Assembly (NCBI GenBank): GCA_934148845.1
Contig: CAKPDH010000001.1
Coordinates: forward strand, 251,963 to 315,962
Direction: 5' to 3'
Length of the DNA: 64,000 nt
Source: an uncultured Bacilli bacterium
GTDB lineage: Bacteria; Bacillota_I; Bacilli_A; RF39; UBA660
Below the pieces are notes generated by a model. That model worked only from the letters and a program-made list of their open reading frames with translations, had not been told where the DNA came from and did no database searches. Positions 26,306 to 39,057 of the stretch are shown piece by piece. Position 1 is the first letter of the stretch; each line of letters begins with the position of its first letter. Both the position numbers and the translations under genes were made by a program.

Positions 26306-27028
26306 TTACTTAAGTATTAATTGTTTGTTTGTATCTATACTATAGCTATAATTTAATAATTTAAAGAAACATTCAGAATTTAAAAGTGTTATTTCAAATT
26401 CTTCTTTAGTTACTTTTAATTTACTGAATAAATAATCTAATTTATGTGGTATTTTAATATTATTTACAAGTTCAAATTCATATAGATCTATTTGTTCTTT
26501 AATATCTGTTTTATTCTTATATAAGTATGAAAATTCTCCTTTATTTATTAATTCTATATTCATAAGTTCACTTGGTATAGATAATATATTTTTATATTTT
26601 ACATTATTTAAATCTTTACTCATATAACTTTTTGGTACCAAAAAGTTATAGCAATATCTATAACATTCCATATCACTATCATATACATATGTTTTGATAG
26701 GATTTGCATATCTATAAAATCCTCTTAAATATTTATTTACTATATTATTTCTTGTTATGATTTCATCGCTTATAGGAAAGCTATTAAATTTAATATCTTG
26801 ATGGGTTAAACAATATTCATTTTTTTTATTAATAAACTCATCTATATCCATTTCTCTTTCACTATCAAGTTTAACACTTTTCTCAAATAAATCAGTTTCA
26901 AAATCAAAAAATTCTATTCCTCTTCTTTTTATTATATTTCTTTTATATTGTTCTATTTCTCTATAATTTGGTTTTAGACAATATATACTTAAAGTATTAT
27001 TATCATTAATTTTATATATTGTAGTCAT
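26306..27028 (-). CDS. Hypothetical protein, paralog A of a tandem pair
   Basis: 240 aa. Shares blocks with the upstream ORF (TLSIYCLKPN and LSIPSELMNIELINKGEFSYLYKN). Overlaps it by 17 nt. Confidence 0.6.
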   Translation of the reverse strand: MTTIYKINDNNTLSIYCLKPNYREIEQYKRNIIKRRGIEFFDFETDLFEKSVKLDSEREMDIDEFINKKNEYCLTHQDIKFNSFPISDEIITRNNIVNKYLRGFYRYANPIKTYVYDSDMECYRYCYNFLVPKSYMSKDLNNVKYKNILSIPSELMNIELINKGEFSYLYKNKTDIKEQIDLYEFELVNNIKIPHKLDYLFSKLKVTKEEFEITLLNSECFFKLLNYSYSIDTNKQLILK

Positions 27029-27626
27029 TCTTTAATTCCTTTCTTTTACTTTCTTGTTTTAAATTATTTTTTATTTTAAAGAAATATTCAGATTCATCAT
27101 TAGATAAATCTAAATTATCTATAGAAATACTTGTTACATATTTTAAAGTAAATAAATTTATAAGCTCATTAACATCTATATTATTTTCATATATATATTT
27201 AAACTTAGATTTTAAAATTAATTCTAAATTCATAAGATTATCAGGAATAGAAATAATATTATTAAATTCTACATAAGCTCTGGTAATGTTTATATCAAGA
27301 GGTACCAATAAATTTAAATTTTTATCTTTCATTTTTACTAAAGTGTAGCTTGTATATCTTAAGTTTATATAATCAGAAATCATTTTATCTTTTAATTCTT
27401 GATTAGTGTTAGTACTACTACATAAATTAATATCACTTATATCTATACCATTTAATAAATCAAGAGACTCTCTTAAACTATTTGTTTTATAATTATAAAA
27501 TATATTATTATTTCTTTTATAATCTAAAATTAAATTTTGTCTATATGAACTTATAGCATTTAAATTAGGTATTAAATCATAAACAGATACAGTATCAGCA
27601 TCATTTGATTTTATTATTTTAATCAT
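27012..27626 (-). CDS. Hypothetical protein, paralog B of the tandem pair
   Basis: 204 aa. TVSVYDLIPN and ISIPDNLMNLELILKSKFKYIYEN match paralog A. Confidence 0.6.
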   Translation of the reverse strand: MIKIIKSNDADTVSVYDLIPNLNAISSYRQNLILDYKRNNNIFYNYKTNSLRESLDLLNGIDISDINLCSSTNTNQELKDKMISDYINLRYTSYTLVKMKDKNLNLLVPLDINITRAYVEFNNIISIPDNLMNLELILKSKFKYIYENNIDVNELINLFTLKYVTSISIDNLDLSNDESEYFFKIKNNLKQESKRKELKNDYNI

Positions 27627-29064: not shown

Positions 29065-29075
29065 ATTACTCCTTT

Positions 29076-29666
29076 CTATGAACTACAAGTCTCAATTTTC
29101 AATTTATAATTTTTAATTTTAAACATAATACTACCATCTTGATCTGTTCTATATATTTTTGAATCACTCAAATTATTTAATACTTCTTTATTGGAATGAC
29201 CGTATCTGTTGTTTTTGCCAACACTAATAATGGAATAATTTAGATTTATTTCATTTATAAATTCTTTACTACTACTTGTTTTACTTCCATGATGACCAAT
29301 TTTTAATACATCAATACCAGATATATTATATTTATTTAATATGTCTTTCTCTTTTTCTACTCCAGCGTCTCCCATAAACATAAACTTATAACCATCAAGT
29401 TCAGTATAAATAACATTTGAATTATCATTTTCATTATCATATTCTTTTGTTTGTAAAAAATATAGTTTGTTATTATCTATATTTAATTTTTTAATACATG
29501 AATAATATTTTATTTTCTTTTTATCTAGTACTTTGATTAATTCTTTTTCTAATTCATTAAACTCTCCACAATTAAATATTACATTATCTACTTTAAAATT
29601 ATTTACTAAATTAATAGATTCTCCCATATGATCAAAATCGCCGTGTGGTGACATAAGTTTATGCAT
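29076..29666 (-). pseudogene. Duplicated 3' fragment of comEC (metallo-beta-lactamase domain)
   Basis: 196-aa ORF HGDFDHMGESINLVNNFKV...GHHGSKTSS. It is near-identical to the C-terminus of 31366..32472, with 100% DNA identity over 29297..29578 against 31585..31866. Confidence 0.75.
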
Positions 29667-29730
29667 ATGGATTTAATCAAAGAAAAAGAACTATCAAGTT
29701 GATGGTCCTTATATGATGTATCATAAAATA

Positions 29731-30450
29731 TCATTGTAACCTATTTTTAATTAATTGTTTAATATTTGAATCTTTTATTTTTTCAATTTGATCTTCAATT
29801 GAAGGATAATCATTATATCTAACTATCTTTGCTTCTGATTTATATCTATCGTGGCTAATCAGATCAATAGTCGGAGATTTTAAAGCTATATTAATTATTT
29901 TAAAATAGTACTCTTTTTCGTGTTCACTTTTTGAGTTCAAATATCTAAAAACAAAATATATGAATGAATCCATTTCATTTTTCAATATTTTCCAGTCTAA
30001 TTTAGGATTTTTATATACTATTAAATTTGTTTCATAAAATTCAGGTTCTACAGGTAAAACTGTAAAAAAAGGTTCACTAGAAACACCAATATTCCAGTTT
30101 GGATTATACATTTCACTAATTATAATATCTTTATACAATCTTTTAAAAACAGATCCATTGTATAGTTCAGAGTTTATAATAAAAATTATATTTCTACACA
30201 AATCAAAGTTCACACACAATTGAGTATTATCAACATCGTTTTCAATAATGCTTGCCATTAAATTTAAATCATCAACTCCATACTTTTTGTAAATATTATC
30301 AATCTTTTCTAAATAATGATTTCTTTCATCTGATTTTTTAAACTCATCATCTAATTCTTTTCTTGCAGCCATCTGATTATAATATTCAATCATATAAAAG
30401 TATTCACAAAGTTTATTAAAATCATTTATTTTTCTTATTAAAGTTTCCAT
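29731..30450 (-). CDS. Hypothetical protein (cargo of the comEC-duplication insertion)
   Basis: 239 aa with no recognisable motif. Confidence 0.55.
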   Translation of the reverse strand: METLIRKINDFNKLCEYFYMIEYYNQMAARKELDDEFKKSDERNHYLEKIDNIYKKYGVDDLNLMASIIENDVDNTQLCVNFDLCRNIIFIINSELYNGSVFKRLYKDIIISEMYNPNWNIGVSSEPFFTVLPVEPEFYETNLIVYKNPKLDWKILKNEMDSFIYFVFRYLNSKSEHEKEYYFKIINIALKSPTIDLISHDRYKSEAKIVRYNDYPSIEDQIEKIKDSNIKQLIKNRLQ

Positions 30451-30521
30451 AAAATCTCACTCCAATTAAAGATTATTATAACATAATATTATATAAACCG
30501 TACACGTATATATTAATACTT

Positions 30522-31349
30522 TTAATTTATAGTCTTTAATATCTTATTTTCTTTTTCTAACTCCTTCAAACTTTTCTTTGGTGTAAGCAAATTTTCAGGC
30601 ATAGTCCTATGATTTTTTTTAATTACCTTTCGAATATTTTTACCTATATTATAATGAGTTTTATTTGCATTATTTTCTCCTATAATATTATCTTCTCTCA
30701 ATGCTGCCTCTGTTTGAGTGATTCTAAACAAGTTAGCCCCTAATTCTTCACTACCCATATTATCTAAAATTTCTTCTCTATATCTTAAACCTTTTCTTTT
30801 GGCTATATCATTTGCAGTTTCTCCATTATATAGACCTTTATAACCACTATTATGAAACTTATCAAAGTTTTTAACTCCTGCATTTCTAGCTGCAATATTT
30901 AAAAAATAATTCCCTTTTTTAGTCAAATCTCTTTGATATAATCTTTTCTCATCTTCTGTTAGTTCATGATACTCTTTTTCAGAAAGTTCTTGTTTCCTTG
31001 TTTGAATAGCAAAGTAAGTTTGACCTAAAGCTACCGTTTTCTTTTTAGGATTAGCATTTTGAACAATTAAATAGCATATGTATCTAGATAATTTATAATC
31101 TTTAATTAATTCTTCTTTACCTTTACCAGTTTTTATTGGCTTCCTGACTTCGGGAAGCCAATATGAATCATCATTGATGCTATTTCTATAAGATATTACC
31201 GCTTTTTTGATTACATTATCAAAATTTTCCCACTTACTATATTCAAGTAATGGCATTAATTCTCGCGCAAACCAATATTCGTTGCCAAACTCATCTATAT
31301 GTTTAATATCTTCAAATATTTTTTCAGTATATTCTTTTATTTCATTCAT
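30522..31349 (-). CDS. dinD: DNA-damage-inducible protein D (DinD family, BRO-N/KilA-like N-terminus)
   Basis: FARELMPLLEYSKWENFDNVIKKA...LSRYICYLIVQNANPKKKTVALGQTYFAIQTRKQE matches the remembered E. coli DinD blocks (SARELAPLLDYRDWRNF...LSRYACYLVVQNGDP...GQTYFAIQTRR). Confidence 0.75.
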   Translation of the reverse strand: MNEIKEYTEKIFEDIKHIDEFGNEYWFARELMPLLEYSKWENFDNVIKKAVISYRNSINDDSYWLPEVRKPIKTGKGKEELIKDYKLSRYICYLIVQNANPKKKTVALGQTYFAIQTRKQELSEKEYHELTEDEKRLYQRDLTKKGNYFLNIAARNAGVKNFDKFHNSGYKGLYNGETANDIAKRKGLRYREEILDNMGSEELGANLFRITQTEAALREDNIIGENNANKTHYNIGKNIRKVIKKNHRTMPENLLTPKKSLKELEKENKILKTIN

Positions 31350-31365
31350 TTTATTAATCTCCTTT

Positions 31366-33360
31366 CTATTGGCTACAAGTTTTAATTTTTAATTTATTAT
31401 TTTTAATCTTAAATATAATACTTCCATCTATGTCTGTTCTATATATTTTTGAATTACTTAGATTATTCAAGACTTCTTTATTAGGATGTCCATAACGATT
31501 ATTCTTTCCAACACTAATTATTGAGTACTTTGGGTTTGCCTCATTTATAAAAGACTTACTACTGCTTGTCTTACTTCCATGGTGTCCAATTTTTAATACA
31601 TCAATACCAGATATATTATATTTATTTAATATGTCTTTCTCTTTTTCTACTCCAGCGTCTCCCATAAACATAAACTTATAACCATCAAGTTCAGTATAAA
31701 TAACATTTGAATTATCATTTTCATTATCATATTCTTTTGTTTGTAAAAAATATAGTTTGTTATTATCTATATTTAATTTTTTAATACATGAATAATATTT
31801 TATTTTCTTTTTATCTAGTACTTTGATTAATTCTTTTTCTAATTCATTAAACTCTCCACAATTAAATACCACGTTTTTTACCTTAAAATTATTTACTAAA
31901 TTAATTGCTTCTCCCATATGGTCAAAATCTCCATGTGTAATTATAAGATAGTTTATTCTCTTTATACCATTACTTTTTAAATAACTTATTGTATTATCAA
32001 TTATATTTTTATTATACACTCCTCCTGTATCTATTAATATATTACTTTTATTTAATTTAACAAAAGTAGAATCTCCTTGCATTACGTCTAAGTATGTAAC
32101 AAAGGAATCTTTTTTAAATAGATTAATATTATTGTGAATTAATATTGTAATAAAAAGAAGTAATATATAAATATATTTTTTTCTTATAAATTTATATAAT
32201 ATGAAAGTAATTAAAATATAATAATATATTATAAAAAATATATTTATTTTAGATAATATTATTTCTATTTTATAGTTTGATATAAATAAGTTTAATTGTT
32301 CTAATATATTTATTAAATATATGTATAAATTATCTAATATAGGTATAAATAATACTAAAATAGCCATAGGAAATATTATAATTGATATAAGTGGTACAAA
32401 TATCATATTATTAAATATAGTAAGAAGATTTATACTAAAATAATTATTAATTAATATAGGTATACTAGACATAAAAGCTATTAAAGATGTAATAAATATC
32501 TTTTTTATATATGTATTACATCTTCTAATTAATAAGTTAAATATAATTAAATAAAATGATACGATATAACTAAATTTAAAGCCTATATTATATATACTAA
32601 AAGGATTTATTATTATTGCAATAGTAAAACATAATATAAATATTTTATAATTTTTTATATTAAAATTTAGTATTCTATTAAATGTATAAAGTATAAAGAA
32701 TAATAAAGAGCGTATTACTGATAATGAAAAACCAGTAAGAAATGAAAATATAAATAAAAATATTATAGTTATAATATAGTTTATATTACCTTTTTTAATT
32801 TTATTTAAAATAAATAATATAATAGTTGATATTAAAGATATATGACTACCTGATATTGAAAATAAATGGCTTATGCCATTTATTCTATATGAAGTTTTAA
32901 TATTTTTTTTATATAATTATTATAACCTAGTATAAATGAGTATAAATATTCACGTGTTTTTAATTTATCTATTCTTTTTATTATATATTTTTTTAATTCA
33001 TATAATAATGATGTATTTTTCTTTAATATAGTTATATTATCTGCATGCATCTTATAATAAGTTTTTTTACTTAACATATATTTTTTATAATTAAATAAAT
33101 TAAATATACTATTTTCTTCATATGAAGATAAAGTTCCACTTGCTTTAATTTTATCTCCTAAGTTAATATTCATATTTGATTTATTAAAGTATACTCTAAC
33201 ATTTTCTTTATTTTTAACTGTATATATTATATTTTTATCACTTACTTCTATATTTGATACATATCCTATTACATACCTAGTATCTAAGTTATAATTACTA
33301 TCTACCTTTGTATATTTAATTATATATATTAAAGAAAATACTAAGAGAATTAGATAAAAT
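31366..33360 (-). pseudogene. comEC: comEC (DNA internalisation channel), apparently disrupted
   Basis: All three ComEC domains are present: the N-terminal DUF4131-like region (...MNINLGDKIKASGTL...), the competence domain (HLFSISGSHISL) and the MBL domain (HGDFDHMG...GHHGSK). The reading frame shifts by -1 after the T8 run at 32903..32910. No ATG, GTG or TTG start lies upstream of MNINL. Confidence 0.65.
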
Positions 33361-33363
33361 ACA

Positions 33364-34065
33364 TTAGAGTTTAATATAATCTTTAATTTTTGAATAAAGT
33401 TTATCCCCTATACCAGAGACATTTTTAATATCTTCTATATTTTTAAATTCTCCATTCTTTTCTCTATATTCTATAATAGCCTTAGCCTTAGTTTCTCCAA
33501 GATATGGTATATTAATTAAATCTTCTACTGTACAAGTATTAATGGATACTAAAGCACTTTTTACGTCATTATCTAAATTATCACTAGTACCATTTGTATT
33601 AACAGTATCATCTTTATTAATACAAGCATCATTTATATTATCAGGACATACACATTCATATTCAATATATATAATTTCTTTATCTTGCTTTTTATATTTT
33701 TCTACTTCGTCATTAGAATATATTATTATAATCATTTCATCGGTTATTTTTTTGCTTAAATTAATATACTCTGTATTAGCGCCATCTATAAGTCCACCCG
33801 ATAATTTTATTACATCAATTATTCTACTATCTTTTGCAAGCTCATATACTCCAGGCTTTTTTACAAAGCCTTTTATATCTACTTTTAATAATTCTGGTTC
33901 TTTATTTTCTACACTTGTTATATTTTCTATATTAGTATTATCTAATTCTTTAGTATCTTCTACTTTTCCTTGTACATCTATAACTACAAATAATAATATC
34001 ACTAAAATTAATATTATTAATATAAATAATTTATATTTATCTAAATAGTATTTTATTTTATTCAT
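33364..34065 (-). CDS. comEA: ComEA (DNA receptor; SLBB plus tandem HhH)
   Basis: TM anchor, then GFVKKPGVYELAKDSRIIDVIKLSGG (SLBB), then C-terminal EDLINIPYLGETKAKAIIEYREKNGEFKNIEDIKNVSGIGDKLYSKI (HhH). Confidence 0.85.
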   Translation of the reverse strand: MNKIKYYLDKYKLFILIILILVILLFVVIDVQGKVEDTKELDNTNIENITSVENKEPELLKVDIKGFVKKPGVYELAKDSRIIDVIKLSGGLIDGANTEYINLSKKITDEMIIIIYSNDEVEKYKKQDKEIIYIEYECVCPDNINDACINKDDTVNTNGTSDNLDNDVKSALVSINTCTVEDLINIPYLGETKAKAIIEYREKNGEFKNIEDIKNVSGIGDKLYSKIKDYIKL

Positions 34066-34127
34066 GTATCTCCTTCTGTGATTTTCCTATATATATAATA
34101 CTATTTTTTTTACTATTTTCCTTTTAC

Positions 34128-34160
34128 ATGCAAAAAAAGTGATAAAAATCACTTTTTTAA
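34128..34160 (-). terminator. Intrinsic terminator hairpin (aagtgat-tttt-atcactt) plus a T-tract
   Basis: Minus strand reads aaaaaagtgatttttatcactttttttgc. It lies at the 3' end of the GC-enriched ORF-free region. Confidence 0.5.
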
Positions 34161-34770
34161 TGGCTTTAATACAGTTAATCTTGCGTCATAGGTCAAGTTG
34201 GATTTCCCTAAATCTTACTCATCGTTACCAATAAAGCGGTTCCCCTTTAAAAGATTTAATACAAAGTATTACTTGATTACCACTCAGTACGCACTGCAAT
34301 CCTATACTAATTCACTCTAGGAGATTTCCTCACCAGTTATTTATTATTAATTCTTTTTTGCAAATAACATTTCAAATTGCATTCTTATAGATTCTAGCTA
34401 TAAACTTATAAGAATGTTAATCAATTATCCCTATTACTCACTCAAGACTAGCTACACTACCCATAACTTTCATCACGAGGTAGGTTTAATCCTATTTCGT
34501 ATTAGATCCATCAGTTTGTTCGTATAGGTCTAACACAAGAATAGGTCTCCACGGATGGTGGGTCATTTACATATGCCATTATGGATGCCCAACATCCTCA
34601 TTTCCAGCACTCACCCCAATCTGGGCGAAAGAAGCAAGCACAAGAAGTTTCACAGGTGTGCTATTGAACGGATTTTTAGCCCCGCCTTCATAATAAATAT
34701 TCTGACTAGAATAATGTGCCACCACGACTAAAAGTATATCAAATTTACACATATTTGTCAAATTGAATAC
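34161..34770 (-). ncRNA. Candidate large structured non-coding RNA of about 600 nt; identity unresolved
   Basis: Roughly 38-40% GC against about 24% around it. No ORF of 60 aa or more apart from one spurious listed ORF. Multiple local hairpins (for example ggatgCCCAAcatcc, cagtGCGTactg). Ends at an intrinsic terminator just upstream of comEA. Confidence 0.3.
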
Positions 34771-34807
34771 TTCTAATATATTATATTCTAAATAACACTA
34801 TTATTCC

Positions 34808-35308
34808 CTAATTTAAATACTTATTTATTTCTGAATCAATAAGCTTAACGAATTTTTTATTATTACTTTTATACTTTTTAGGCTTAAAAGATTTTATTTT
34901 ATCTAAAACTAAATCCAAATGTTCAAAATCATCTAAAGATAAAATATACCCTGCATCTTTAAAATTTTCAATTATTTGTAATTGATGATCATTAGTATGT
35001 TCCTTATATTTAGAAAGACGTGCTGCTGCTATTACTTTTTTATTTTTATTTAATCCAGATATTATGGAACCTACCCCACCATGTGTTATTAATATATCAC
35101 ATTTTGATATAAGATTTTCATATTCATCCATTGGTATTAAATCAAATATTTTCATTTTTTTAGATTTAAAATCACTACAGCTTCCTGCTTGTACAATAAC
35201 TTCATCTTTTATATTTCCGTTATTTATTTGCTTTTCAACTGCAGAAAGTAACCTATAAAATTTTTTATCTTGAGTACCTAATGTTACTAAAATCATTAAA
35301 AAATCCAA
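34808..35308 (-). CDS. Alg13-like glycosyltransferase subunit (Cps14G/EpsF-like; GT28 C-terminal domain)
   Basis: 166 aa with ...CDILITHGGVGSI..., partnered with an adjacent Alg14-like domain. Confidence 0.65.
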   Translation of the reverse strand: MDFLMILVTLGTQDKKFYRLLSAVEKQINNGNIKDEVIVQAGSCSDFKSKKMKIFDLIPMDEYENLISKCDILITHGGVGSIISGLNKNKKVIAAARLSKYKEHTNDHQLQIIENFKDAGYILSLDDFEHLDLVLDKIKSFKPKKYKSNNKKFVKLIDSEINKYLN

Positions 35309-37146
35309 CCTCCATATATTGCTTTAGGATAAAGCTTCATCATCTCTTCCCACTGTACTATAAAAGTATCAGCTATAGGAGAAATAATTTTACCTGCTAC
35401 AGTTTTTGTGTTTCTATTTGCAAATGTTTCAATATAAATTATTTTACTTCCAAAAACTTTGCCTATATAACACATAGGAACTGCAGTATGTGTTCCTGTT
35501 GTAACTATAACTTTAGGATTAATTTTTAAATATAAAATTAAACTTTTAATTATGTTATAGCTAAATTTAAAGATATATGTAAAAAGATGTAATTTAGTAC
35601 CATATACTAAATAGTAGACATTACTATATTTATCTTTTAATGTTTTATTTGATTTAGTCTTTTCAGTTACTATATAACTATCATATTTATTAAATAACTG
35701 TTTTAATTGAAGTAATTCATTCAAATGTCCACCTGTTGAAGATATAAACATAACTTTGTTATTAGTATCACTAATATATATATAATTAATTAACATTCCA
35801 TAAAGTAGTAAAAATAATGGGAAAATTTGTGTATCATATATTGCATTCTCAGCTATAGCATTCACTGCTATAAATCCCATAGTTATTAAACTACATATAA
35901 CACTTAAATTATATACTTCATTCTTTTTACTAAAATTGCTTAAAAATAATCTTGCAGGTTTAAATACTAGCATAATTAAAAATAGAATAAAAAACATTAA
36001 TGAAAAAGTACTAACTTCTGCATATAATAATACAAATGATGAATGTGGGTGTGTATACGGTAAATTATATTCTGGATGAAGTTTTTTAAATTCACTACTC
36101 TTCATATAATCAATATATGAACCAAATCCAACACCAGTATATTTATTTTCATTTGCTATAACTTTCGCTATATGAGCAAATTCTTCTCTATGTTGAAGTG
36201 AATAATCTTTATAATCAGAATCATCATCATAATCTTTATAATCATTTGGATTTTGATTATCTTTATCCTTATTAGAATTTATATCTGGCAAAAAGCTTAA
36301 AATGTTTTCAAATTTTGAAAAAATAGCTATTGCATCATCACAAGATTTAATTGCAAGCTTACTAGCGCCTGGAATATATACTGTAAGAAGTATCATAGTT
36401 AAAATTAATAGAAGAGTTTTAAAATTTATTGACATTTTATATAAAAATATTATTGCTAAAATTAATATTGCAAAAAATACTAGTAAAGCAGATCTTGTAA
36501 ATGTTAATAAAATATTTACATACGTGATAGTAGATGCAATAAATAATAATATAGTAATTAATTTATTTTTTGATTTACAGAAAGCATAAAATATTAATAC
36601 AAAAAATAAATTAATAAATATACCATAATAAATAGTATTAAAGAATGTTGTTGATATCCTACCTGTTGCACCCTCATAATATGAAATACCAGCCTTAAAT
36701 ATATCTTTATCAAATAAGTATTCTAATATTCCAATGCCACCTAAAATTAACAAGGATATAATAATTACTTTAAAAAATATTAAATATTCTTGTTTTTTAA
36801 AATTATACTTATATGCTATAAAAAATAAACAATATGCAACTATGAATTTTAAAAATGTATAAATACTTACTATAAAATTTCTTGTTGCAGATAAAGATGG
36901 TATAGCAAATATTATAAAAAGAAGATATATAAATGTTATTAATTTATAATTATTTTTATTTATGCTTATTTTCTTTTTATATAACATTATAAAAAAGATT
37001 AAAATAAATAGAAAACTAAGACCAATTCTAACAGGTATACCCTTAAAATTTGTTACTGATTTAGGTATAAATATAAGTAGTAATATATATATTAAAGCAG
37101 AATAAAATAACATATTATGAGTTTTTAGTTTTTGTTTTAAATTCAT
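35296..37146 (-). CDS. Fusion of an O-antigen-ligase/Wzy_C-like multi-TM domain with a C-terminal Alg14-like (Cps14F/EpsE-like) domain
   Basis: N-terminal 450 aa has about 10-12 TM segments plus TFTRSALL and YTHPHSSFVLLYAEVS (Wzy_C-like). C-terminal 150 aa (MFISSTGGHLNELLQL...VTTGTHTAVPMCYIGKVFGSKIIYIETFAN) is Alg14-like. Confidence 0.6.
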   Translation of the reverse strand: MNLKQKLKTHNMLFYSALIYILLLIFIPKSVTNFKGIPVRIGLSFLFILIFFIMLYKKKISINKNNYKLITFIYLLFIIFAIPSLSATRNFIVSIYTFLKFIVAYCLFFIAYKYNFKKQEYLIFFKVIIISLLILGGIGILEYLFDKDIFKAGISYYEGATGRISTTFFNTIYYGIFINLFFVLIFYAFCKSKNKLITILLFIASTITYVNILLTFTRSALLVFFAILILAIIFLYKMSINFKTLLLILTMILLTVYIPGASKLAIKSCDDAIAIFSKFENILSFLPDINSNKDKDNQNPNDYKDYDDDSDYKDYSLQHREEFAHIAKVIANENKYTGVGFGSYIDYMKSSEFKKLHPEYNLPYTHPHSSFVLLYAEVSTFSLMFFILFLIMLVFKPARLFLSNFSKKNEVYNLSVICSLITMGFIAVNAIAENAIYDTQIFPLFLLLYGMLINYIYISDTNNKVMFISSTGGHLNELLQLKQLFNKYDSYIVTEKTKSNKTLKDKYSNVYYLVYGTKLHLFTYIFKFSYNIIKSLILYLKINPKVIVTTGTHTAVPMCYIGKVFGSKIIYIETFANRNTKTVAGKIISPIADTFIVQWEEMMKLYPKAIYGGWIF

Positions 37147-37147
37147 C

Positions 37148-38107
37148 TTAATTACCTCCTAATCTATACATTATTTTAGCTATTAACTTATTAAATATAA
37201 GTAAGTATAAGCCCTTTTTATTAGTATAAAAATATTTATTTTTTTTATAATTTGGAAAATTATTTTTTACATTTTTTATTGCATCATTTACGGCTTTATC
37301 ATACATTTTTTTATCTTTAAAATAAGTAGCTCTTTTTATGAAAGTTGCATATAAATATCTAACATAGCAATATTCTAATTCATTTTTATAATCAAAAAAT
37401 AAGTTATTATCTTTATAATATTTTATTATTCCATTCCAATTATCAATATAGTCCCATAAACGTTTATCAAATGTTTTAGTAATAGCCCCATCTCTTTGTA
37501 CATAATTAACAAATGGTTTTTTTACTACACCAATAGAATTTATATATGGATATAGTCTATATATAAACTCAACATCCTCAAACCAAACTTTTTCTTTAAA
37601 AAATATTTTATTATCAAATAGTGATTTTTTATATATTTTATTCCAACATGCTGGATATATAGATATCATGCTTCTTTTTATATCTTCTTTAGTAGTTAAA
37701 TCTTTTTCTATATTTGAATATGCATTAACAGTATGGTCCTCATAAACATATTTTAAGTCACATACTACTACATCAAAATCTCCTGAAATTGCTTTATTAT
37801 ACATATTTAAATACATATCGCTATCTATATAATCATCACTATCTAAAAAAGCTATATAACTTCCACTAGCATGCTTTAAGCCATAGTTTCTGGCACTAGA
37901 AAGTCCTCCATTTTCTTTAATATATGATTTAATATTTTTATAATTTTTCTTATATTTATCTATAATTTTTTGACTATTATCTTTAGTACCATCGTTAACA
38001 ATAATTATTTCAATATCATTTAAAGTTTGATTTAATATACTGTCTAAACATTTTTCCAAATATTTTTCAACATTATAAACAGGTACAATAACACTTAATT
38101 TTACCAC
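37148..38107 (-). CDS. Glycosyltransferase family 2
   Basis: LSVIVPVYNVEKYLEKCLDSILNQT...VNDGTKD...DSDD. Confidence 0.85.
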   Translation of the reverse strand: MVKLSVIVPVYNVEKYLEKCLDSILNQTLNDIEIIIVNDGTKDNSQKIIDKYKKNYKNIKSYIKENGGLSSARNYGLKHASGSYIAFLDSDDYIDSDMYLNMYNKAISGDFDVVVCDLKYVYEDHTVNAYSNIEKDLTTKEDIKRSMISIYPACWNKIYKKSLFDNKIFFKEKVWFEDVEFIYRLYPYINSIGVVKKPFVNYVQRDGAITKTFDKRLWDYIDNWNGIIKYYKDNNLFFDYKNELEYCYVRYLYATFIKRATYFKDKKMYDKAVNDAIKNVKNNFPNYKKNKYFYTNKKGLYLLIFNKLIAKIMYRLGGN

Positions 38108-39057
38108 TATTTGCCACCCAATTTCTTTATAATTTTACAAGTATTTAGCATACCTTTTGACGCAAAAAAGCAAAATATTTTAAATTTATAGCTTTTCATC
38201 TTATAAATTACATTTTTTCTATAGTTTGGATAATTTTTTTTCATATATTTAGTTATATAAATACAATTTTTTTGTCCCTCATCAAAAGATAAAAATCTTA
38301 AATATGCACTATATAATAAATGTTCTATGTTTAAATATTCTAAGACAAAAAAGTATTTATCACTTCTTAATTTAAATTGTTCATTCAAATATTTCATTAT
38401 AATAAATATATCTTCCAATTTCTTAGAATATTTTTTTTGATTCATTGATGAATTATCTCTTATAACATAATAGTATAATTCTTGATCAATAAAAGAAATT
38501 TTTTTTGCATATATACCAAGTAGTGGTATTACTGCAAGATCTTCATATATACACTTTTCTTTAAAAAATATATTATTTTCTATAAAAAGTGACTTTTTAT
38601 ATAATCTACCAACAGGACCTGAGTGAGAAATCATATAATTAACATTATCATCATCACATAATTTATTGAAATTAACAAATTTTTCTTCATGTGATGAATA
38701 CTTTTTTATTAAATTACAAATAGAAATATCCGAATCATTTTCCTTCATAGAATTATATAGTTTCTCTATCATATCATTTTTTATATAATCATCACTATCT
38801 ACAAATGTAATAAGCGACCCAGTAGATAATTTTATTCCTAAATTACGTGCTGAGCCTTGACCACTATTTTTTATAGTTCTTACAACTAATCTAGAATCAC
38901 TTATTGAATCTAATACCTTTAAAGTATTATCAGTAGATCCATCGTTTATAACAATTACTTCAATATTTTTATATGTTTGATTTAATATACTATCTATACA
39001 TTTCTTAATTCTTTTTTCTTCATTATAAGCTGGAACAATAACACTAATTTTATTCAT
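38107..39057 (-). CDS. Glycosyltransferase family 2
   Basis: ISVIVPAYNEEKRIKKCIDSILNQTY...DSDD. Confidence 0.85.
   Translation of the reverse strand: MNKISVIVPAYNEEKRIKKCIDSILNQTYKNIEVIVINDGSTDNTLKVLDSISDSRLVVRTIKNSGQGSARNLGIKLSTGSLITFVDSDDYIKNDMIEKLYNSMKENDSDISICNLIKKYSSHEEKFVNFNKLCDDDNVNYMISHSGPVGRLYKKSLFIENNIFFKEKCIYEDLAVIPLLGIYAKKISFIDQELYYYVIRDNSSMNQKKYSKKLEDIFIIMKYLNEQFKLRSDKYFFVLEYLNIEHLLYSAYLRFLSFDEGQKNCIYITKYMKKNYPNYRKNVIYKMKSYKFKIFCFFASKGMLNTCKIIKKLGGK

Follow-up and report, generated by a model that had tools for sequence, protein, structure and literature searches.

The window, that is the whole 64-kb stretch of DNA analysed, carries on its minus strand a gene for an OLE RNA (ole), which is preceded by an Alg13-like glycosyltransferase gene and a Wzy_C+Alg14 fusion and is followed by a ComEA-like gene; the positions of these genes, and of the features recognised in and around the RNA, are collected in Table 1. 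The Alg13-like and Wzy_C+Alg14 genes form the end of a long same-strand surface-polysaccharide locus upstream of ole. The ComEA-like gene, which had been named comEA and placed just downstream in the sequence-only reading of this region, is confirmed as such by its SLBB and HHH_3 domains and stands in the place generally held by oapA.

Table 1. Position of ole, of its conserved substructures and of the neighbouring genes in the window.
Feature	Position	Strand	Remarks
Wzy_C+Alg14 fusion	35296..37146	-	Pfam; upstream of ole
Alg13-like glycosyltransferase	34808..35308	-	Pfam; upstream of ole
Sigma-70-type promoter of ole (predicted)	34733..34761	-	TTGACA 34761..34756, 17-nt spacer with TG, TATACT 34738..34733
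OLE RNA gene (Rfam RF01071), full length	34144..34738	-	595 nt, 36% GC; cmscan
5' conserved block GGCACAUUAUUCUAGUCA with CUAG palindrome	34703..34720	-	columns invariant in 17 of 17 sequences
CCUGUGAAAC block, k-turn region in model species	34647..34656	-	UGAA core invariant in clade
Loop L9.3 with palindrome AGCU (UAUAGCUAGA)	34393..34402 (AGCU at about 34398)	-	clade alignment
Invariant hairpin GAGGAAAUCUC	34321..34331	-	model positions 404-414; invariant in clade
Truncated P13 hairpin AAUAC-UUU-GUAUU	34258..34270	-	bulge and GNRA tetraloop deleted
P14.1 tip, GNRA loop kept (UUG-GUAA-CGA)	34222..34231	-	TGG-AAC invariant in clade
Intrinsic terminator of ole (predicted)	34132..34158	-	11-bp A/U-rich hairpin, then U tract
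ComEA-like gene in the usual place of oapA	33364..34065	-	Pfam SLBB 1.1e-10, HHH_3 1.8e-21

The assignment to OLE is due to a comparison of the entire 64-kb window with Rfam 15 at gathering thresholds, in which RF01071 is the sole match: it runs from 34738 to 34144 on the minus strand, scores 367.6 bits where 50 would suffice for gathering (cmscan; E 2e-104) and covers positions 1-616 of the 616 of the model, untruncated. Among the highly conserved (upper-case) positions of the OLE consensus, 209 of 249 are identical in the window copy. The 19 clade relatives most similar to it among at least 120 loci, all of them full-length OLEs, score 345-433 bits, so that the score of the window copy is ordinary for the clade. 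A large structured RNA, with OLE as the first family named, had been proposed for this interval, and it is the Rfam scan suggested on that occasion that yields the full-length OLE; the limits then drawn, 34161-34770, correspond almost exactly to one OLE gene, the match itself extending over 34738..34144 and the promoter reaching 34761.

The OLE assignment also explains the local GC anomaly. The enrichment is real, with figures smaller than those first given: the GC content is 35.6% at 34161..34770, not 38-40%, and 21.3%, not 24%, in the flanks (30000..34100 and 34800..39000), compared with 23.7% in the window overall and with a peak of 43% in a 200-nt profile. The only ORFs in the interval are 34555..34731 on the plus strand (58 aa) and 34579..34761 on the minus strand (60 aa), both inside the RNA and both without a Pfam match, in agreement with the earlier statement that no real ORF is present; the "hypothetical" 60-aa ORF can therefore be dropped from the annotation. 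The size of the interval and its GC excess are the only features in favour of a different element, such as a ROOL, GOLLD or raiA RNA, an ORF-less group II intron or a decayed protein gene of foreign origin. None of these RNA families reaches its gathering score in the window and the OLE match accounts for the entire interval; such an origin, whose likelihood is practically negligible, was rejected on the basis of the whole-window cmscan, in which only OLE is found, and of the Pfam-negative ORFs. Genes for tRNA or tmRNA are not found in the window.

OLE-bearing organisms are Gram-positive Bacillota, in general anaerobes or extremophiles, and the host agrees with this in its gene content, its gut origin and the affiliation of the nearest OLE-bearing MAGs. 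In particular, genes for a sortase, ComEA/ComEC, a PASTA-domain PBP and a SpoIIGA-like protein are located on the window and the adjoining contigs, and the identical ole-bearing contigs stem from human-gut metagenomes. The nearest OLEs among the loci listed belong to MAGs, mostly from the gut, that are labelled Bacilli, Mollicutes, Tenericutes or Erysipelotrichaceae.

The predicted promoter of ole agrees with the sigma-70 type at 11 of 12 positions, has an extended -10 element and is the best promoter-like site in 33000..36000. Its -10 box overlaps the first bases of the Rfam OLE model, and transcription probably starts at about 34726. The arrangement TTGACA / about 17 nt / TAnnnT is found at an equal distance from the first invariant OLE nucleotides in most of 17 related loci, which makes the promoter a conserved part of the ole gene. 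At the opposite end, the terminator that had been noticed on the minus strand is recovered as an A/U-rich hairpin at 34158..34132, AAAAAAGUGAU-UUUU-AUCACUUUUUU followed by U, with a predicted energy of -11.3 kcal/mol by direct RNA folding; a consensus terminator scan missed this hairpin because it contains fewer than three G-C pairs. With its own predicted sigma-70-type promoter and intrinsic terminator, ole is a stand-alone, structurally constrained and full-length transcription unit of the minus strand.

The structural constraint was evaluated in a MAFFT alignment of the window RNA and 16 clade relatives (17 sequences; 70-76% identity of the relatives to the window OLE), drawn from at least 120 species-level genome loci retrieved with a conserved OLE pattern, for which RNAalifold gives a structure of 153 pairs. 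Over these pairs, 97.3% of the alignment cells of the 17 sequences are standard pairs. Two-sided (compensatory) changes occur in 84 pairs; shuffles average 43 such pairs, and sliding the partners by 1-3 columns leaves 17-27. The covariation score reaches 0.411, compared with about 0.08 in the controls; the observed covariation values are reached by none of 500 shuffles. The comparative covariation check suggested earlier thus gives a strong signal in the relatives (double changes in 84 of the 153 pairs). Of the grounds named in advance against a structured RNA, namely the lack of an Rfam hit and of covariation or the presence of a decayed protein gene, none applies, since both the hit and the covariation are found and nothing points to a decayed gene.

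The de novo fold recovers the Rfam OLE helices and adds long-range helices that are unpaired in the Rfam structure line, at columns 26-33/438-445, 44-51/409-416 and 78-81/300-303. The last two are backed by covariation and are probably the published P2-P4 helices; through them the 5' segment is connected with the stretch that immediately precedes the GAGGAAAUCUC hairpin (in the window about 34697..34690 with 34347..34340). The window copy retains 148 of the 153 pairs, two being broken and three deleted, which equals the relatives that have an adjacent oapA. At columns invariant in the 16 relatives it shows six private differences, in a range of 0-9 for the relatives themselves, and a single pair (columns 78/303, from G.U to U-A) accounts for two of them, one on each side, which indicates a compensated change on the lineage of the window. 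Among six metagenome contigs that stem from different samples of the human gut, ole is 100% identical; the same holds for its flanks, so that this identity carries no information on selection.

Several substructures described in model OLE RNAs can be located in the window copy. The GGCACAUUAUUCUAGUCA block is the predicted long-range partner of CUAGAGUG, just 3' of the GAGGAAAUCUC hairpin (RNAalifold helix 1, columns 26-33/438-445). OapA sites have been mapped to palindromes in or near P2 and P4a (PMC12265935), and it is this published location that points to the GGCACAUUAUUCUAGUCA palindrome as a sequence that may be tied to OapA binding. The k-turn of the model species is bound by OapC and bS21 (PMC9723947; PMC12286853); following this literature the CCUGUGAAAC block is a candidate k-turn region, and the CUGUGAAAC block, also attributed to the putative k-turn region, is conserved in the clade alignment. 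The palindromic L9.3 loop at the tip of the P9 arch, a putative dimer contact, is retained in the window copy. Its tetranucleotide alternates between GGCC and AGCU among the clade members, matching the GGCC/GAUC/AGCU covariation that has been put forward in support of kissing-loop bridge B3 in the OLE homodimer (PMC12286853). The GAGGAAAUCUC hairpin formed part of the pattern by which the at least 120 OLE loci were retrieved. Finally, the four-way junction P12.2/P13/P14/P15 is recognisable, and the P14.1 GNRA loop kept in the window copy corresponds to a weak secondary OapB site (PMC7936274).

The canonical OLE RNAs of Halalkalibacterium halodurans and Clostridium acetobutylicum and the window copy are alike in their length of about 600 nt, in the full-length match to the covariance model, in the P9 arch with a palindromic L9.3, in the four-way junction P12.2/P13/P14/P15 and in the blocks GGCACAUUAUUCUAGUCA, CCGUGGAGACC, GGAUUAAACCU, GAGGAAAUCUCCUAGA, AGUGGUAAUC, UUAAAGGG and GGGAAAUCC. 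In contrast to the canonical genes, the window has comEA and not oapA downstream, its flanks differ from the ispA...dxs isoprenoid/DNA-repair operon, and its source is an AT-rich human-gut genome (23.7% GC) and not an extremophile. In the RNA itself, the canonical hairpin at model positions 424-435 is absent in the window and in the whole gut clade, and the P13 GNRA tip is deleted in the window copy.

The P13 hairpin of H. halodurans has a single-base bulge and a GNRA tetraloop, and the loop, which docks into P12.2, is the primary OapB site (PMC7936274). A P13 with bulge and GNRA tetraloop is a near-universal trait of OLE RNAs and is missing from the window copy, in which the gap amounts to 10 nt with respect to model positions 486-497 and to 11 columns with respect to 15 of the 16 relatives. 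In the window 24 nt separate AGUGGUAAUC from UUAAAGGG, a spacer that measures 33-35 nt in 100 of the 104 species among the loci listed; the next shortest among these 104 species is 28 nt, in L012 and L067. These two loci, from related gut MAGs, have a shortened P13 capped by GAUUC or GUUUC with no GNRA loop, so the window is not alone in having lost the OapB-type loop. Because the P13 GNRA tip is gone, high-affinity binding of OapB at its primary site is probably lost, and the particle, by analogy with the model species, would be a reduced one without OapB at that position. The reduced-genome gut clades RF39 and TANB77 have been reported to largely lack OapB and OapC. A known RNA family gains an ordinary member here, which is atypical in its locus, where oapA is not adjacent, and in one deletion, that of the P13 tip.

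Two natural variants of OLE RNA offer a further comparison. Variant 1 (TANB77-type) has shortened P7-P9 and is devoid of the P13-end nucleotides for OapB, and variant 2 (RF39-type) has no P7/P8 (PMC11332333, Fernando & Breaker 2024). The published variant 1 OLEs also do without the P13 site, and its absence does not exclude membership of the family. The window OLE resembles variant 1 in missing the OapB-binding end of P13 and in belonging to an uncultured low-GC gut bacterium (PMC11332333). Unlike both variants, it has full-length hairpins at model positions 198-252 and 260-288, which are presumably P7 and P8, and a full-length long P9 arch, so that it fits neither variant 2 nor the shortened P7-P9 of variant 1.

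The oapA gene was searched for with an HMM built from 91 ORFs directly downstream of OLE, each of which scores at least 210 bits and which have a DVIGD motif in common. At E<=10 no oapA match is present in the six frames of the 64-kb window or in the 10 kb past each of its ends, corresponding to about 84 kb of genome, and none was detected by the same six-frame search on the six identical metagenome contigs. The gap from the terminator to comEA is only about 65 nt, so no remnant of oapA can hide between them. The window thus does not have the tandem ole-oapA arrangement. In the literature ole and oapA are almost always found in tandem, which is a frequent association and not a strict criterion; The occurrence of OapA and that of ole are also described as almost completely mutually inclusive, and ole genes that seem to be defective are reported from organisms in which OapA is missing. 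Since oapA is not adjacent here, it must lie elsewhere if the complex is canonical. An OapA-family profile search collected at least 7,992 proteins, and candidates for an unlinked OapA were chosen, among the 120 proteins listed, partly by their AT-rich amino-acid composition. Two of them, P0109 and P0117, were rejected as the OapA of this organism, as they derive from canonical ole-oapA loci of other organisms. The locus of P0117 (L135-L140), from another gut organism, has the order rpsU (bS21), yqeY, a 700-nt gap of the size of an OLE, and oapA; the adjacency of rpsU may be meaningful, bS21 having recently been reported as a component of the OLE RNP.

Among the loci listed, oapA is in the same 8-kb block as ole in 113 of 119 evaluable species and is absent from it in six (L010, L070, L109, L024, L054 and L104). 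Three of these, L010, L070 (Clostridium senegalense) and L109, have the classical context: ole is immediately followed by dxs, and the 8-kb block contains no oapA. The other three, L024, L104 and L054, are close relatives that, like the window, combine an intact OLE (374-397 bits) and no oapA in the 8-kb block with a position beside cell-envelope glycopolymer genes: Alg13-like and GT2 genes in L024, TarI/TarJ-like genes and a GT2+Glyphos_transf gene in L104. In contrast to the window, they keep the P13 GNRA tip and have other downstream genes. They do not group with the window in the OLE tree, which implies that the uncoupling of ole and oapA happened several times. The order Alg14-Alg13-ole is also found in L124, a Mollicutes-labelled MAG, where it is followed by oapA and a prepilin gene, and in part in L024; in the simplest history, ole-oapA would once have adjoined the Alg14-Alg13 genes and oapA would later have been lost from this position.

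comEA follows ole at about 65 nt in the same orientation, and the terminator of ole is A/U-rich and of modest stability (-11.3 kcal/mol), so that some read-through is plausible; this could suggest that the element, rather than being an RNA in its own right, is a structured 5' leader or regulator of comEA/comEC that is transcribed by read-through from the ole promoter. This is very improbable, since the terminator stands between the two genes, the RNA belongs over its full length to a family with a trans-acting role in the model species, the gene downstream is oapA and not comEA in 113 of the 119 species among the loci listed, and adjacency to comEA is seen in no relative examined.

A more serious alternative to an independent and working RNA is that ole is an orphaned relic, in which oapA was lost recently and decay has begun, the P13 deletion being the first lesion and no working RNP being formed. 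In its favour are the lack of oapA within about 84 kb, a P13 shorter than in any of the 104 species sampled among the loci listed, and the apparently defective ole genes reported in organisms without OapA. It is nevertheless decidedly unlikely: the covariance-model score and the number of broken pairs equal those of relatives that keep oapA, the invariant columns show no surplus of private changes, among which there is moreover a compensated pair, promoter and terminator are intact, and the intact OLEs of L024, L104 and L054 indicate that the loss of adjacency alone does not mean decay. The element of the window is therefore very probably a functional gene for the structured non-coding OLE RNA, of about 600 nt, of the Bacillota.

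The function of OLE RNA has been treated in several studies (PMC11332333, PMC9723947, PMC12054373, PMC12265935, PMC12286853), and all the functional statements made here on the window copy derive by homology from the work on H. halodurans and C. acetobutylicum; membrane localisation and the stress phenotypes (ethanol, cold, Mg2+, carbon source) come from experiments in H. halodurans alone. By analogy with these systems, the window RNA would fold into the ornate OLE architecture and dimerise via the L9.3 kissing loop. OapA, a CNNM-like protein and putative divalent-cation transporter, would hold the RNA at the membrane, and the resulting OLE RNP may aid growth in the presence of alcohol/ethanol, in the cold, under excess Mg2+ or on poor carbon sources. 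The particle of the window is probably a reduced version, with no OapB at the P13 site.

In a lineage of low-GC gut Bacillota, OLE has been uncoupled from oapA repeatedly and is located inside cell-surface glycopolymer loci, and the species of the window has in addition lost the docking loop for OapB. A further reading goes beyond a functional gene of the known type and supposes that OLE here needs neither OapA nor OapB and acts as a minimal RNA device in connection with the assembly of envelope polysaccharide or teichoic acid. On balance this reading is unlikely. If true, it would contradict the indispensability of OapA and support the recent proposal of a contact between OLE domain 2 and the cell wall. 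A link of OLE with cell-wall status has recently been suggested (PMC12265935), and the adjacency of ole to glycopolymer genes, which is an association only, is compatible with it.

OLE RNAs are among the largest and best-conserved bacterial RNAs whose biochemistry is still unknown, and naturally occurring variants in which a partner or a structural element has been lost reveal which parts are dispensable. The functional ole gene proposed for the window represents a natural experiment of this kind, a structurally constrained and intact OLE without adjacent oapA or P13 GNRA loop, located beside genes for lipid-linked surface glycans. If the full genome proves to be without OapA and OapB, the minimal OLE particle would be redefined; if they are encoded elsewhere, the window adds one more member of the family in a rearranged locus.

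In the gut clade, ole or ole-oapA often adjoins cell-envelope genes (L018, L044, L116, L110, L115, L104, L124 and L024), unlike the classical OLE loci with their ispA...dxs surroundings. The Pfam-backed neighbours are TarI/TarJ and Glyphos_transf in L104 and the Alg13/Alg14-like glycosyltransferases in L124; FtsW/RodA-like and TagG/TagH-like ABC transporter neighbours were judged by eye from the sequence.

Other features of the window concern the genes on both sides of ole. The comEC gene (31366..33398, minus strand), downstream of comEA, is interrupted by one frameshift, which leaves open frames of 172 codons (33398..32883) and 516 codons (32916..31369) that overlap at 32883..32916; the gene is split in the same way by the gene callers on all the metagenome contigs, and its region 32100..32900 has a GC content of only 9.5-15%. 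The 3' end of comEC is duplicated in the 29069..31950 region, 29076..29666 sharing 91% amino-acid identity with the 194 C-terminal codons of 31366..32472. Between the two copies lies an insert of 2.3 kb, which contains an unknown gene (29731..30450) as well as one with a Bro-N domain (30522..31349) and is followed by a YhcG-type nuclease gene. The arrangement resembles the insertion of an element at the comEC 3' end, for which the element itself supplied a substitute. Differences between strains are located only inside the comEC repeat, at 31654..31779, and their confinement to it suggests gene conversion.

On the 340-kb contig Hadza NODE_15 (L001, L127, L129), the MutS...PriA segment, which occupies 49.4-63.4 kb of the window, is about 88 kb away from comEA/ole and in the opposite orientation to them, so that the window and the Hadza assembly differ by a rearrangement, with a breakpoint in or beside the polysaccharide locus at about 44.7-49.4 kb of the window. 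Between two polysaccharide gene blocks, at 26306..27626 on the minus strand, an ORF of 240 aa and one of 204 aa lie side by side and overlap; neither has a Pfam match, and their N-termini are visibly similar.
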